Assembly: GCA_035250975.1 (NCBI GenBank)
Contig: DATFEP010000060.1
Span: 1 to 20,428, forward strand
Reading direction: 5' to 3'
Origin: Nitrososphaeraceae archaeon
GTDB lineage: Archaea > Thermoproteota > Nitrososphaeria > Nitrososphaerales > Nitrososphaeraceae
DNA length: 20,428 nt
The stretch's first letter is position 1, and each line of letters begins with the position of its first letter. The translations under genes were made by a program, and so were the position numbers. Below, piece by piece: positions 986 to 6,527 of this stretch. A model generated the notes under the pieces. It saw only the letters and a program-made list of their open reading frames with translations. It made no database searches and was not told where the DNA came from.

Positions 986-2069
986 TTAAGATTCTGAAAC
1001 ATCAAATTGGAATTTTGCTTTTTTCCTTTTCATAATTTGTACAAGAGACAGCATTACCGGAACTTCAACCAGAACACCAACAGTAATTGCTAAAGTGACC
1101 CCAGAATGTACACCAAACAAAATTGTAGATACTGTTACTGCAAGTTCAAAAAAGTTACTTGCTCCAATGAAAGCAGTAGGTGCTGCTTCCGGATAAGGTA
1201 TTCTCAATTTTTTTGATCCAAAATATCCTAATGCAAAGATTAGATAGGTGTGAAGTACAAGAGGGATTGCAATTAACATCAAGTGATAAGGAAAATTGAT
1301 GATCTTATCGCCTTGAAAAATAAAAATAAGAACTAGAGTTATCAAAAGACCAATTGGAGTAATTTTATCAATTCTCTCGATTAGATGAGTTTCAAGCCAT
1401 TCTTCTCTCTTCGTCTTGATTGTTACTCGTCGATTTAAAGCCGCTAATCCCAAAGGTACTGCAACATATAATAAAATTGAGACAAAAAGAGTGTCAAGAG
1501 GAACAGAAAACCCAGTGGCTCCAAGCAAAAACACACCAAGAGGAACATAAAGAACAAGGATAATTAGATCATTTATTGATACTTGAAGTAGTGCACAACT
1601 AATATTAGCTCTAGCAAGATATGTCCATACAAGTGTCATTGCCGTACAAGGTGCAAGTCCAAGAATTATCATACCCATCATGTATTCTTTATGTAAATTT
1701 TTCAGGAATCATAGAAGAAAAAATAACGCCCATAAACAACCAAGCGATAAAAGCCATCATAAAAGGTTGGATTGCCCAATTTATAGTCAATGTAAAAGCC
1801 ATAACCTTTACATTTTTCCTAAAGTTCAACAGCTCTGAATATTTTACTTTAAGCATAATTGGATACATCATCATCAAAAGTACTATTGCTATGGGGAGCG
1901 AGACATTTGCAAACTCAATGCTTGACAAAGAAGTAGATAGTGAAGGAAAAAAATATCCTAGCAAGGTTCCAGATATAATACAAATTGCTACCCAAATTGA
2001 GAGATATTTGTTAAATACATCGAGTTCCTTTTGATAAATTTTCGAGATTTTAGGTTCCTTTCGAGTTAT
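986..2069 (-). pseudogene. acr3: Acr3 family arsenite efflux transporter, frameshifted and lacking a canonical start
   Basis: Motifs FNKYLSIWVAICI, MMYPIM, INWAIQPF, GLAPCTAM, GASNFFELA and GVLVEVPVML. One extra base in GAAAAATTTA (~1694-1703) splits ORFs 1689-1964 and 986-1681. The first TM helix lies upstream of any ATG/GTG/TTG. An in-frame ATA at 2069 sits about 26 nt below TTATAA (2095-2100). Confidence 0.88.
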
Positions 2070-2134
2070 GAATACTGTATTATTGGTATATGTGTTATAA
2101 GTTTTTATTAAAACTGCTATACCTTCTATCTAAA

Positions 2135-2635
2135 TTGGTTACTGATGTTGGTACTGATAATAAAATAACACAAAACCTTATTAAAAAAATTCTAGTGGGA
2201 GTAGATGGTTCTGAGAAGTCATTTGAAGCTGCTGAATATGCATTAAATTTAGCTGAAAAATACAAAAGTAAATTGATACTAATTGTATATGTTCTTGAAA
2301 TAGAACCCTGGCTTCATGGTGAATATCCATATAGTTGGGGGAAACCTGAAGTAATTGAAAAAGTGTATGAGAATCAAAAACGAGATATACAGAAGATTCT
2401 TGACAAAATAAAAGAAAAAACTGATAAACTCGATCTAAATTCTAAAACTGATATGATTATGACTCCTCGCACAACTAATCCATCAATAGCGTTGGTAGAT
2501 TACTCTGAAAAAAACGATATTGATTTAATAGTGGTAGGAACAAGAGGAAGCACTGGTTTCAAGAAATTGCTTCTTGGTAGCGTAGCTAGCGGAGTGGTAA
2601 CATATGCTCATTGTCCAGTATTAATTATAAAGTAG
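2135..2635 (+). CDS. Universal stress protein (UspA family)
   Basis: KKILVGVDGSEKSFEAAEYA and DLIVVGTRGSTGFKKLLLGSVASGVVTYAHCPVLII motifs. TTG at 2135 is preferred over ATG 2090 because a TATA-like element lies at ~2104-2113. Confidence 0.92.
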   Translation: MVTDVGTDNKITQNLIKKILVGVDGSEKSFEAAEYALNLAEKYKSKLILIVYVLEIEPWLHGEYPYSWGKPEVIEKVYENQKRDIQKILDKIKEKTDKLDLNSKTDMIMTPRTTNPSIALVDYSEKNDIDLIVVGTRGSTGFKKLLLGSVASGVVTYAHCPVLIIK

Positions 2636-2852: not shown

Positions 2853-3548
2853 TTATTTAACATTCTTAGTAAATTTACCCCTAAATAATAAGGCTATAAA
2901 TGATGTTCCTATGAAAGTTGCAGACAAATAAAGCCACAAATCATTTAAGACTCCAGATAATAAAGCAGGTGCTAAGGACCTGGCAGGATTCATGGAAGCA
3001 CCAGAAATAAATGCCAGGAAAAAAATATCTAAACCAACAATACTACCAATTACTAATCCACCAAAACCTCTCAAACCTTTTGTATGTACTACAATACAAA
3101 TAACAATCATCAACAATGCAGAAGCCAAAACTTCTATTCCAAATATCAAAGGAAGTGGATAACTATAATTTGGCGCATTAGCACCTAAATTGGCTTCATA
3201 TCCAATAAAATACTTTACAAATAAACTTGCTAAAAGGGCACCAATAATTTCCGCAACAAAATAATATACCAATTGATATTTTTTTATATGTCCAGTTATT
3301 AGAAATGCTAATGTCACTGCAGGATTAAAGTGCGCCATAGATATTTTACCTAAAATATATACCCCTATTGTAACTCCTATTAATGGAGAAATAGCAATAA
3401 ACGGAAGTCCCAACACTCCTCCAGTTTTTGCATCAATAACTACAGATCCAGTAGCTAATACAACTACGATAAATGTTCCAATAATTTCTGCAAAAAATAT
3501 TTTTTGATCAGACGATAGTCTATTGGTTAATTTCCAAAGTTGAGACAA
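2853..3548 (-). CDS. MIP/aquaporin family channel (NIP/AqpN-like, likely metalloid channel)
   Basis: Two NPA boxes (HFNPAVT, SMNPARS), AEIIGTF, six hydrophobic segments; overlaps the arsC 3' end. Confidence 0.93.
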   Translation of the reverse strand: MSQLWKLTNRLSSDQKIFFAEIIGTFIVVVLATGSVVIDAKTGGVLGLPFIAISPLIGVTIGVYILGKISMAHFNPAVTLAFLITGHIKKYQLVYYFVAEIIGALLASLFVKYFIGYEANLGANAPNYSYPLPLIFGIEVLASALLMIVICIVVHTKGLRGFGGLVIGSIVGLDIFFLAFISGASMNPARSLAPALLSGVLNDLWLYLSATFIGTSFIALLFRGKFTKNVK

Positions 3549-3969
3549 GTTCTTTTATCCTCTTCTCTATTTCATCTCTTATATCCCTAACTTCTTCTAT
3601 AGATTTCCCTTTTGGGTCTTCTAAATTCCATTCTATAACCTTTGGTAACCATATTGTAGGACAAAAGTTTTTATCCATACAGCCCATATTTACTATATTA
3701 TAAGAGTCTCGAATCATTTCATCGGTTAACTCTTTAGATCTTTGTTTACTGATGTCTATTCCAACTTCTTTCATTACTTCAACTACTATTGGATTGAGTT
3801 GGTAGGCAGGTTTTGTTCCTGCACTCACGGTTTTAAATCTACTCGGAGCATATTTTTTAAAAAATCCCTCTGCCATTTGACTTCTTCCTGCATTTTCAAT
3901 ACATACAAAGAGAATTGTTTTAGCATCTTTGTTACTACTTCTTTTTTTAGATTTTCCAAAAAATTTCAT
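3520..3969 (-). CDS. arsC: Arsenate reductase, LMW-PTPase fold (thioredoxin-type)
   Basis: P-loop FVCIENAGRSQMAEG, SAGTKP, NMGC..CP resolving cysteines, WNLEDPKG, VRDIRDEI; ars gene context. Confidence 0.9.
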   Translation of the reverse strand: MKFFGKSKKRSSNKDAKTILFVCIENAGRSQMAEGFFKKYAPSRFKTVSAGTKPAYQLNPIVVEVMKEVGIDISKQRSKELTDEMIRDSYNIVNMGCMDKNFCPTIWLPKVIEWNLEDPKGKSIEEVRDIRDEIEKRIKELVSTLEINQ

Positions 3970-3985
3970 GATCGTATCACTCCTA

Positions 3986-4768
3986 CTAATTTGTTAGTGC
4001 TTTAACTATTATACTAACGATTTTCCTTCCGTCACTAAAATTGGTTTCATCCCTGTATGTTTTTTCATTTAATATCTGGATGTTTTGAAATCCAGCGTCC
4101 TCAATGCTTTTTATGTAATTTTCTTTTGTTAATGCACCATCAATACAACTACACCAATTATCAGTATTGACGTCATCTTTGCTAATTTCTTTAGTTGTTA
4201 TCAGGTCAGAAATAATCATTCTTCCTTTTGACTCTTTTTTCAAAATACGATAAATTTCTTTGAAAGTATTTGTCTTATTAGAGGTCAAATTAATAACACA
4301 ATTACTTATTACAACATCTACCGAGTTAGTATCAATAGGAATTCTCTCTTCTATGTCTCCCTTACTAAATTCTATATTCTTGTAATTATGAGCGATTGAT
4401 GTTTTTCTTGCTTTTTGGAGCATTTCCTCAGTCATGTCAATTCCTATAACTTTTCCCTTATTACCTATCAATTTAGATGCTAAGAACGCATCAATTCCAG
4501 CACCTGAACCCAGATCAACTACAGTTTCACCTCTTTTTATATCTGCAAAATTTAGCGGTGCACCACATCCTAATCCAAGAATTGATTCTTCTGGAATAGA
4601 TTCCAATTCTGTTTCATTATATCCAATAACAGATGATACCTGTTCTTTAGAAATGTTATTAATATTACAACAAACCTGCTGTGGATTACAACAAGAACTG
4701 ATATTAGCTTTTAACGCAATTTTTGCATAATTTTCTTTGATTTTGTCTTTGAGTATTTCTTTTTGCAT
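3986..4768 (-). CDS. arsM: Arsenite S-adenosylmethionine methyltransferase
   Basis: N-terminal CC..CC, LGLGCGAP, VDLGSGAGID (SAM binding), GIDMTEEML, ISNCVINL, WCSCIDGAL. Confidence 0.93.
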   Translation of the reverse strand: MQKEILKDKIKENYAKIALKANISSCCNPQQVCCNINNISKEQVSSVIGYNETELESIPEESILGLGCGAPLNFADIKRGETVVDLGSGAGIDAFLASKLIGNKGKVIGIDMTEEMLQKARKTSIAHNYKNIEFSKGDIEERIPIDTNSVDVVISNCVINLTSNKTNTFKEIYRILKKESKGRMIISDLITTKEISKDDVNTDNWCSCIDGALTKENYIKSIEDAGFQNIQILNEKTYRDETNFSDGRKIVSIIVKALTN

Positions 4769-4828
4769 AATTATGTTTACTAAGGAAACTATTTAAATTG
4801 TCAAGATGACCATATTACACAAAGTATC
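4769..4828. promoter_or_regulatory. 60-bp divergent promoter for arsM and the regulator, with palindromic TATA and candidate operator
   Basis: ATTTAAAT at 4791-4798 lies 23-30 nt above the arsM ATG and 31-38 nt above the regulator ATG. Imperfect inverted repeat GTTTAC-TAA-GGAAAC at 4775-4789 lies between the TATA and the arsM start. Confidence 0.55.
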
Positions 4829-5209
4829 ATGAGGGAAACAAAGGGACAAAAAGTAAAGAAATTGCCTTTATATGATCATTGTACTTTTGATGGATATGAC
4901 TCTCAAAAATTAATGTTACAGACAACGAAACTTCGAAATCTGATAACAAAGAGAGGGACATTTGAAATGTTGATTCCTTTATGTTGCACAACCAATCCTG
5001 TAAGATATAAGCAATTCAAAGAGGAACTAAAAGGTATTAGTAGTAAAACTCTTGCTCGCAGATTAAAAGAACTTGAAAAAGATGGTATACTAGAAAGACA
5101 GGCATATAATGAAATTCCACCAAGAGTAGAATATAAAATGACTAAGAAAGGTCAAGAATTAGTAGAATCAATAATAAATTTAATTCAATGGATGATAAAA
5201 TGGTCATGA
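4829..5209 (+). CDS. HxlR/DUF24 (MarR-superfamily) winged-helix regulator with Cys18, Cys52, Cys53
   Basis: HxlR signature RYKQFKEELKGISSKTLARRLKELEKDGILERQAYNEIPPRVEYKMTKKG; divergent from arsM. Confidence 0.9.
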   Translation: MRETKGQKVKKLPLYDHCTFDGYDSQKLMLQTTKLRNLITKRGTFEMLIPLCCTTNPVRYKQFKEELKGISSKTLARRLKELEKDGILERQAYNEIPPRVEYKMTKKGQELVESIINLIQWMIKWS

Positions 5210-5978: not shown

Positions 5979-6527
5979 TTAGGGTAAATCTATAGTATGC
6001 ACCGCGTCTTCACAACTTAGACACATAAACCTGCCACAACTATCACACCACTGTATTTCAATGGAGCTGCCACATGAATCACATCCAGGTCCCTTTCCTC
6101 TAGTGGCCGTTCGCAATATGGAAGAAGCCAAATCTGATTTTATTTTAGGCAAGAGAAACATTACTAAGTCAGTTGTTGTTATTATGCCAACTAAATCATC
6201 ATTTTGGTCGACAATTGGAATCTTTCTGATTCCATTTTTTAACATGATTTTTGCTACTTTTTCAACTGTTGTACTGTGGTCTGCTGTAATAAGTGGATGG
6301 GAAGCCAAATCACCAAGAGGCGTATCACGAGCATATCTTCTTACAAGATCTCGTTCGGTAATTATTCCAAATGGTTTGTTATTTTTAGTTATAACAATAC
6401 TCCCTATTTTTTTCTCGGTCATCAAATCCGCTGCATGAGACGCTATTTTTGAGACATCTAAAGAGACAACATTCGTAGACATTATATCCTCTACCTTGGT
6501 ATTGCTTTCTTGTACAAATGATTTCAT
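5979..6527 (-). CDS. CBS-pair protein with C-terminal B-box-like zinc finger
   Basis: KVEDIMS, IGSIVI..GIITERDL, IRKIPIVD..GIITTTDL; tail CDSC-x8-CDSC-x4-CLSC-x4-H. Confidence 0.88.
   Translation of the reverse strand: MKSFVQESNTKVEDIMSTNVVSLDVSKIASHAADLMTEKKIGSIVITKNNKPFGIITERDLVRRYARDTPLGDLASHPLITADHSTTVEKVAKIMLKNGIRKIPIVDQNDDLVGIITTTDLVMFLLPKIKSDLASSILRTATRGKGPGCDSCGSSIEIQWCDSCGRFMCLSCEDAVHTIDLP

Follow-up and report, generated by a model that had tools for sequence, protein, structure and literature searches.

Which regulator controls the arsenic genes of an archaeon when no ArsR gene is found beside them? This question is raised by positions 2853-5209 of a 20,428-nucleotide (nt) stretch of DNA from a Nitrososphaeraceae archaeon (NCBI GenBank assembly GCA_035250975.1, contig DATFEP010000060.1), which has been analysed as a whole and is called here the window. 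On the minus strand this segment encodes an As(III) S-adenosylmethionine methyltransferase (arsM; 3986-4768, 260 aa), a probable low-molecular-weight-phosphatase-type arsenate reductase (arsC; 3520-3969, 149 aa) and a channel of the MIP family (2853-3548, 231 aa), and divergently, on the plus strand, a winged-helix regulator of the HxlR/DUF24 family (4829-5209, 126 aa) that belongs to a 'CC' subclade (CC-HxlR). A first-pass annotation, made from the sequence alone, had proposed that this protein is the arsenic sensor of the locus. The reading that we favour, with a confidence lying a little above even, is that the HxlR/DUF24 protein acts as a dedicated repressor of arsM-arsC-MIP in the place of ArsR, sensing trivalent arsenic through cysteine thiolates. 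To judge from sequence, CC-HxlR in this and many other archaea is probably an arsenic sensor, previously undescribed, that replaces ArsR.

The first-pass annotation had reported that the window lacks an ArsR gene, and this has been confirmed. There is no PF01022 match on contig C55 and no ArsR-type domain in the other open reading frames (ORFs) of the window that were scanned, and the six Pfam families matched in the window scan do not include PF01022. In the whole genome (2.49 Mb, 94.6% complete), 10 matches to HTH_5 (PF01022) over the cut-off are located on other contigs. None of the ArsR-sized HTH_5 proteins (86-109 aa) contains a cysteine (12 listed places were translated); those bearing cysteines are larger, one of them with a C-terminal cysteine cluster that by eye is a TRASH domain. 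With the HTH_5 query, an ArsR-type As(III) site was not found in any protein of this genome, whose missing ~5% could hold a trans-acting ArsR.

The assignment of the regulator to the HxlR/DUF24 family is well founded, since its match to PF01638, covering residues 46-125, reaches 77.8 bits against a cut-off of 20.8. Its sequence matches in the Protein Data Bank (PDB) are YtcD, HypR/YybR, YodB, HxlR and QsrR. The AlphaFold2 (AF2) model, with a predicted local distance difference test (pLDDT) value of 85.9, retrieves as top Foldseek matches 1z7u, 2fsw, 1yyv, YodB (5hs7/5hs8), HxlR (7bze), HypR (4a5n) and QsrR (4hqe), all with probability 1.00 and template modelling (TM) scores of 0.59-0.70 normalised on the query, and the ArsR/SmtB-type proteins CadC, BigR and HlyU are placed lower than these HxlR-family structures. 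The protein is also predicted to form a homodimer, with an interface score (ipSAE) of 0.84 versus 0.01 for the best control, a run-to-run contact agreement of at least 84% and a pLDDT of at least 80; the ipSAE mark used is attained by 20 of 30 solved homodimers and by one of 23 single chains, and the pass may come from likeness, because HxlR-family dimers have already been solved. On each subunit, the predicted interface includes residues 18-26 and 52-55. In YodB, HypR and QsrR the sensing cysteine sits at the N-terminus of helix alpha-1. This canonical cysteine is missing here: the alignment with HypR and YodB puts the site near residue 32, where there is no cysteine, a feature that sets the regulator apart from the thiol-sensing subgroup, not from the Pfam family.

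The regulator has three cysteines of its own, as the first-pass annotation stated: C18, C52 and C53 are the sole cysteines of the 126-aa translation. The Cys18 codon (4880-4882, plus strand) lies in the N-terminal motif C-x-F-x-G-Y-D, and the vicinal Cys52-Cys53 pair (4982-4987, plus strand) lies in IPLCCTT. In the AF2 model, Cys18 is in coil (pLDDT 74-79) within an N-terminal extension of ~20 residues, C52 is the final residue of helix 44-52 (alpha-2) and C53 is the next residue, and in the dimer model all three are in or beside the predicted interface. These cysteines are conserved. C52-C53 are invariant in alignment A3, which contains 33 sequences down to 41% identity from ammonia-oxidising archaea (AOA), Bathyarchaeia and other Thermoproteota and an Asgard metagenome-assembled genome (MAG), and the N-terminal cysteine is present in 115 of the 115 AOA-clade loci where the region is available. 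In the Bathyarchaeia/Asgard branch, the third cysteine is found at other N-terminal sites or in C-terminal CxC or CC tails, and all full-length members of the CC clade that were inspected have at least one cysteine beyond the CC pair. In alignment A3, the three cysteines are not joined by any conserved His, Asp or Glu. Among 1.84 billion cluster representatives searched, no more than seven matched below 1e-30; 38 of the 75 listed representatives spanning positions 52-53 read CC, those listed include a distant CC branch at 43-54% identity, and most of the other in-clade sequences that lack CC appear to be truncated or frameshifted. The three-thiolate (S3) sites of ArsR proteins, as described in the part of PMC11868830 that deals with them, vary in position and take their ligands at helix ends. 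ArsR proteins and CC-HxlR are thus alike in having a movable third cysteine.

If this protein regulates arsenic genes, its homologues should remain beside such genes, and in fact they keep a divergent arsM or arsC across genera, families and phyla. Among 60 relatives searched, orthologues at 62-94% identity were found in 28 of the 36 same-family genomes, the matches below 50% identity being paralogues. We have fetched 29 orthologue loci, including the one described here, and 27 of them (from this genome and 26 same-family genomes) have an upstream flank; the divergent neighbour is arsM in 25 and arsC in two. The co-occurrence is just as strict: arsM is present in 24 of the 36 same-family genomes and the regulator in all 24, eight genomes have neither, and none has arsM without the regulator. 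A wider sample of species representatives, for which the distant branch was the query and 80 loci were kept of 592 matches, extends to Nitrososphaera, Nitrosocosmicus, Nitrosotalea, Nitrosotenuis, Bathyarchaeia, other Thermoproteota and one Atabeyarchaeia (Asgard). In this sample, 79 of 80 loci have CC, and 68 of these 79 have a divergent arsM (58) or arsC (10). The other 11 comprise four loci with less than 400 nt upstream, one Atabeyarchaeia chromosome (L082) in which arsM is one gene further on, and six loci with no detectable ars gene. In L082, a DUF169 gene (4162-4881, minus strand; PF02596, 179.8 bits) stands between CC-HxlR and arsM in the same divergent operon. The single locus of the 80 without CC, a Bathyarchaeia locus inside the CC clade (L085), has TT in its place, and no ars gene lies nearby.

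A sample at the level of the phylum (401 genomes, yielding 30 loci with 1.5-kb flanks) has allowed us to compare 18 CC homologues with their 12 nearest CC-less HxlR paralogues. An ars gene neighbours 18 of the 18 CC homologues (17 arsM, one arsC) and none of the 12 paralogues within these flanks. The CC-less proteins (L180-L191) have the canonical C-x-C-P...GKKW N-terminus. Of the outcomes that the first-pass annotation had named as refuting it, two were checked by computation, namely poorly conserved cysteines and homologues unconnected with ars genes, and neither is seen. The locus sets overlap (L163 is identical to L086), and their counts are not additive. In a FastTree phylogeny of 60 sequences and 92 columns, for which SH-like support is the only support, all CC proteins fall on one side of a single branch (SH-like support 93), and L085 and the fragment P0139 nest within the CC clade, as secondary losses. 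The tree bears on the earlier description of the sensor as independently evolved, which stands relative to ArsR and does not stand within HxlR, where the CC clade looks like one origin.

Extra copies occur within single genomes, each with its own arsM or with arsC-MIP and no arsM (L072-L074), apart from L075 and L076, which are described below. This arsM-less architecture, with the regulator divergent from arsC-MIP, is found in L072, L073, L074, L077, L078 and 10 species-representative loci, sometimes alongside the arsM type in the same genome, and the regulator keeps all three cysteines in it. At L079 (G032:C259, ~1200-1390), arsM and the conserved intergenic DNA are preserved and only the first codons of the regulator (METKARSKK...) are left; this is a recent deletion of the regulator, in a genome with another intact pair. 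A variant with two arsC genes, in which the regulator is followed by divergent arsC-arsM-arsC-MIP, is present in three Nitrosotalea loci (L124, L128, L150). A typical AOA-type CC-HxlR gene with an AOA promoter was also seen on a 249-kb contig of a MAG labelled Acidobacteriota (L141); the contig may have been wrongly binned or labelled, or the gene may have been transferred. In other Nitrososphaerales families, arsM-like genes of 37-48% identity (L067-L069) have no HxlR neighbour. At L069, a winged helix-turn-helix gene (1721-2356, plus strand), TrmB-type by eye, lies ~0.7 kb upstream of an arsM-like gene of 37% identity.

The conservation extends to the DNA between the genes. The 60-bp divergent promoter region proposed by the first-pass annotation (4769-4828) does separate arsM from the regulator gene, and it is conserved across 76 loci of several genera. 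We have aligned upstream regions by anchoring them on the TATA box, which was possible for 76 of 81, and the same 76 share the architecture G-TTTAC-N4-GAAAC-TATTTAA-GTTGTCAAG ... TACAGTTGGTGTAA..ATGGAAAC. In this window the central TATA-like box TATTTAAAT (4790-4798), presumably bidirectional, is nearly invariant in the 76 loci, and the block TTGTCAAG (4798-4805), kept in the consensus of these loci and located on the regulator side of the TATA box, would be the equivalent of a transcription factor B recognition element (BRE) for arsM. Two dyads flank this centre. The candidate operator O1 (GTTTAC-TAA-GGAAAC, 4775-4789) separates the TATA box from the start of arsM, and O2 (TTACAC-AAA-GTATCA, 4815-4829), a candidate autoregulatory site, overlaps the start of the regulator. 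The promoter is nearly symmetrical: read from either gene, one dyad is found downstream of the TATA box and the other upstream of the BRE/TATA.

A column-wise dyad scan of 75 loci (L083 was dropped) gave O1, as a 6-3-6 dyad, a mean of 4.57 complementary pairs out of six, versus 1.63 across all positions, and its 4-7-4 core GTTT-N7-AAAC is 95% complementary. O1 is a perfect GTTTAC-N3-GTAAAC in Nitrosotalea-type loci, and its cross-genus form is GTTTAC-N3-GKAAAC. O2 is the second-best dyad position, with a mean of 3.53 pairs out of six and at least five pairs in 21 of the 75 loci; it is perfect (TTACAC-N3-GTGTAA) in close relatives. The O2 region persists even in L085, where there is no ars neighbour, and this is what an autoregulatory site would lead one to expect. 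The centre of the TATA box is ~26 bp from the arsM ATG at 4768, and 26 bp is also the commonest distance among the loci. Given the distance that archaea usually have between TATA box and start, such spacing fits a leaderless mRNA, and therefore the arsM transcript may be leaderless and O1 would lie on the arsM core promoter. The strict pattern GTTTAC-N3-G[GT]AAAC has a single match in the genome, with ~0.8 expected by chance, a count that says only that there is no second site; therefore, a local regulon is suggested. No O1-like site was found upstream of the gene for the arsenite efflux protein ACR3 present in the window (see below).

From these observations the following mechanism can be proposed. 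We infer that the regulator binds arsenic in S3 geometry and that it represses rather than activates, with O1 as its operator: a homodimer on O1 (4775-4789), which has the shared TATA box on one side and the presumably leaderless arsM start on the other, would block transcription, and O2, at the regulator's own start, would probably also be bound, resulting in autoregulation. As(III), and possibly methylarsenite, MAs(III), would be held by three thiolates, two from the Cys52-Cys53 pair where helix alpha-2 ends and one from Cys18, which may be donated by the other subunit; an intersubunit triad site like that of CgArsR is possible by analogy. Arsenic binding would then distort the dimer and release the DNA, switching on reduction by ArsC, methylation by ArsM and exit through the MIP channel.

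A number of points weigh against this reading. To our knowledge, all characterised members of the HxlR family sense oxidants, quinones or aldehydes, and for this reason a disulphide switch is the default expectation for the family. The pair formed by residue 18 and residue 52 of the other subunit is absent from the listed lowest-error contacts of the dimer model. The PDB entry of B. subtilis HxlR calls this protein an 'HTH-type transcriptional activator', which bears on the sign of the regulation. Because the CC clade falls on one side of a single branch, the linkage to ars genes is largely one inherited and maintained association, not a set of many independent ones. Six loci with CC and ample flank (L087, L105, L134, L137, L141, L157) show no ars gene by four queries, and an intact extra copy (L075) is found in a neighbourhood of copper and calcium transporters; these loci could mean a broader role in soft-metal or thiol stress. 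As for the promoter, the dyads of this window are imperfect, with five of six pairs in O1 and only four of six in O2, and the conservation of O1 may be partly basal, because its right half coincides with the expected BRE of the regulator promoter.

The main rival explanation, unlikely in our view, is that the protein is a classical redox or electrophile switch of the HxlR type, in which a Cys18-Cys52'/53' disulphide, or S-alkylation, would induce the ars genes during general thiol stress. It has the family precedent on its side, as stated in the PDB titles of YodB, HypR and QsrR, and the location of Cys18 and Cys52-53 in the predicted dimer interface is what an intersubunit disulphide needs; the six CC loci without ars genes would fit as well. 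However, the divergent genes are specifically arsenic genes, namely an ArsC and an ArsM with As-binding cysteines aligned to those of CmArsM, and the linkage to arsM or arsC is deep while the canonical redox cysteine has been lost. It is because of this gene content and of this loss that we disfavour the redox switch. Moreover, a vicinal pair with a movable third cysteine is the As(III) pattern of ArsR-type proteins.

The sign of the regulation might also differ from that proposed. The same sensor with the same ligand could be an arsenic-dependent activator or a dual regulator, recruiting the basal machinery to arsM from O2 and shutting its own gene, with O1 doing the reverse. The near symmetry of the promoter, with dyads downstream and upstream of the TATA box for opposite genes, would allow this arrangement, and an activator has a namesake in the PDB entry of B. 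subtilis HxlR. But conservation is stronger in O1 than in O2, and O1 is placed on the core promoter of arsM, in the interval from TATA box to start that is the classic site of archaeal repressors, and both the ArsR proteins and most of the thiol-sensing HxlR members are repressors. We give activation little likelihood, and repression from O1 continues to be the reading that we prefer.

The ligand is the next point on which the repressor model can be challenged. A sensor selective for MAs(III) would need two thiolates, so that Cys52-Cys53 alone could bind methylarsenite, Cys18 being structural or having no role in sensing. Of the cysteines, CC alone is invariant in the whole clade, the position of the third cysteine not being kept outside AOA, and arsM is the first gene of the operon at most loci. 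There is also a precedent, since two-cysteine sites confer MAs(III) selectivity in ArsR proteins such as SpArsR, according to the portion of PMC11868830 on such sites. This possibility appears more doubtful than the previous ones: further cysteines occur in every full-length CC-clade sequence inspected, the N-terminal cysteine is present in all 115 AOA loci inside a conserved motif, and the arsM-less arsC-MIP operons retain a regulator with all three cysteines.

Lower still we place the explanation that arsenic is not the effector, the ligand of the cysteines being another soft metal (Zn, Cu, Cd or Hg) or their role being structural. It rests on the intact copy at L075 and the decayed one at L076, whose neighbours by eye (L075:303-5828; L076:2507-9965, with stops) are genes for a CopA-like copper P-type ATPase, TRASH-domain Lrp-type regulators, a CaCA antiporter, and CorA-like and NRAMP-like proteins. 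But these are two of many copies, one of them a pseudogene, arsM or arsC is the dominant neighbour everywhere, and no His, Asp or Glu is conserved with the three cysteines. L075 also encodes, at 3467-3973, a protein with MMGPQQG repeats. Finally, a coincidental neighbourhood, in which the HxlR gene would not regulate the ars genes, is conceivable insofar as the regulation is proposed from sequence, but it is very unlikely, as both the divergent layout and the sequence between the genes are kept from soil and marine AOA to Bathyarchaeia and, where one genome has paralogous copies, every copy is accompanied by an arsM or arsC of its own.

Having returned to a trivalent-arsenic repressor as the preferred reading, we can consider the genes that it would control. 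The three minus-strand ORFs are co-oriented, as the first-pass annotation described, and the ORF list and the sequence agree on this; the coordinates likewise give the 16-nt gap between arsM and arsC, and the 29-nt overlap between arsC and the MIP gene holds if the TTG at 3548 is the start of the latter. ArsM scores 273.6 bits against NF008823 (cut-off 263), and its alignment to the CmArsM structures (4fr0/4kw7) places cysteines opposite GCG (~72), NCV (~174) and ECLGG (~224), which we take to be the positions of the As-binding cysteines of CmArsM. ArsC matches PF01451 with 78.9 bits, and its best PDB matches are the arsenate reductases 3t38, 2l19, 3rh0 and 1ljl; the C-X5-R P-loop can be read in the translation as CIENAGRS, and matches to the NCBIfam models TIGR02689, TIGR02691 and NF010053 are all under their cut-offs. 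The MIP protein (PF00230, 125.8 bits), a candidate conduit for As(OH)3 or MAs(III), has two NPA motifs (HFNPAV and SMNPAR), and its gene comes after arsC in most of the related loci.

The channel is not the sole exit that the window encodes. An ACR3 arsenite efflux gene (986-1964, minus strand; TIGR00832), which the first-pass annotation had missed, lies 0.9 kb away in two frames (1689-1964 and 986-1681), which cover the profile positions 22-103 and 105-326, each under the cut-off of 282.8. There is no single intact frame, as a frameshift occurs at an A-run near 1685-1700 (coding-strand run GAAAAATTTACATAAAG, junction near 1681-1700). The split gene may be a true pseudogene or result from an error of assembly; in the former case, the principal way out here may be the MIP channel. 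Thus, the pathway of reduction, methylation and channelling put forward by the first-pass annotation is supported in that the arsC, arsM and MIP genes are all present, but the frameshifted ACR3 gene does not allow the channel to be taken as the only encoded exit. That annotation also took the host to be an ammonia-oxidising archaeon; the genome contains archaeal amoA, and near-identical regulator proteins come from Nitrososphaeraceae sources.

Other features were noticed around the locus. ACR3 is separated from the MIP gene by a universal stress protein gene (2090-2635, plus strand), and downstream of the regulator there is a gene for a CBS-pair protein with a C-terminal cysteine cluster (5979-6527, minus strand); the genome has many paralogues of each. 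The same genome contains a decayed second arsM-arsC (G000:C42:6051-6810), with arsM pieces of 61-62% identity interrupted by stops, followed by an arsC piece of 68%. The assembled contigs of two runs from one soil metatranscriptome study (X16, X19) carry pieces that are 90-99% like parts of the MIP gene, of arsC and of arsM, and like the regulator's 3' end. Two runs classed as 'probably DNA' hold more locus-like pieces than X16 and X19. DNA carry-over is possible, and these pieces have not been taken as support for transcription, for its strand or start sites, or for induction.

In the literature searched, most subscription journals being outside it, no published link between HxlR/DUF24 regulators and arsenic was found. 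On the sequence and structural comparisons made here, a winged-helix regulator sensing a metalloid through thiolates on the HxlR scaffold would probably be a new scaffold for such a sensor. The arsenic-responsive transcription of prokaryotes is explained almost wholly by ArsR/SmtB proteins, and an HxlR sensor, if true, would be a new structural solution and would add a metalloid to the oxidants, quinones and aldehydes known as effectors of the HxlR family. AOA are among the most abundant microbes of soil and ocean, many of them carry arsM, and knowing its switch would help to predict and measure when arsenic is methylated; if confirmed, the regulator would also be a new chassis for arsenic biosensors. 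More broadly, and here our confidence falls slightly short of even, CC-HxlR could be a second family of arsenic metalloregulators, independent of ArsR and standard in soil and marine AOA, Bathyarchaeia and at least one Asgard lineage. Such a family would sense As(III) at an intersubunit S3 site made up of the CC pair and a third thiolate that has moved repeatedly, to an N-terminal extension or a C-terminal CxC or CC tail, in a convergent replay of ArsR, and it would act on a compact bidirectional TATA promoter with two dyads.

A comparison with known systems helps to delimit what is shared and what is peculiar to CC-HxlR. The closest functional parallel is with ArsR/SmtB proteins, whose As(III) sites, in the section of PMC11868830 that covers them, are formed by Cys32/34/37 in R773 ArsR, by Cys95/96/102 in AfArsR and by Cys15/16 together with Cys55' in CgArsR. 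Like them, CC-HxlR is a small winged-helix protein, predicted here to be a homodimer, encoded at an ars operon and endowed with three cysteines including a vicinal pair; its putative ligands lie at a helix end, and the position of the third one varies with the lineage and is possibly intersubunit, as in CgArsR. Unlike them, it has no PF01022 match, its best Pfam match being PF01638 and its best structural matches being HxlR-family proteins, and its gene is divergent from the operon instead of being the first gene in it, under an archaeal TATA/BRE promoter.

With the HxlR/DUF24 sensors YodB (5hs7), HypR/YybR (4a5n), S. aureus QsrR (4hqe) and B. subtilis HxlR (7bzd), the regulator shares the Pfam family, the fold, the predicted homodimer and the expectation of cysteine-based sensing. 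It differs from them in that the alpha-1 cysteine, which the CC-less paralogues retain as C-x-C-P, is absent, the CC pair being at the end of alpha-2 and the other cysteine in an N-terminal extension of ~20 residues, and in that its neighbours are arsenic genes, whereas those of the known sensors are genes for the detoxification of quinones, aldehydes or oxidants. The operon itself recalls the AqpS-ArsC system of Sinorhizobium meliloti, in which an arsenate reductase of the low-molecular-weight type and a MIP channel are encoded in one operon and As(III) leaves the cell down its gradient. The pairing of arsC with a MIP gene in one operon is common to both, but in the system described here arsM precedes arsC-MIP at most loci, the regulator is of the HxlR type and the host is an archaeon.

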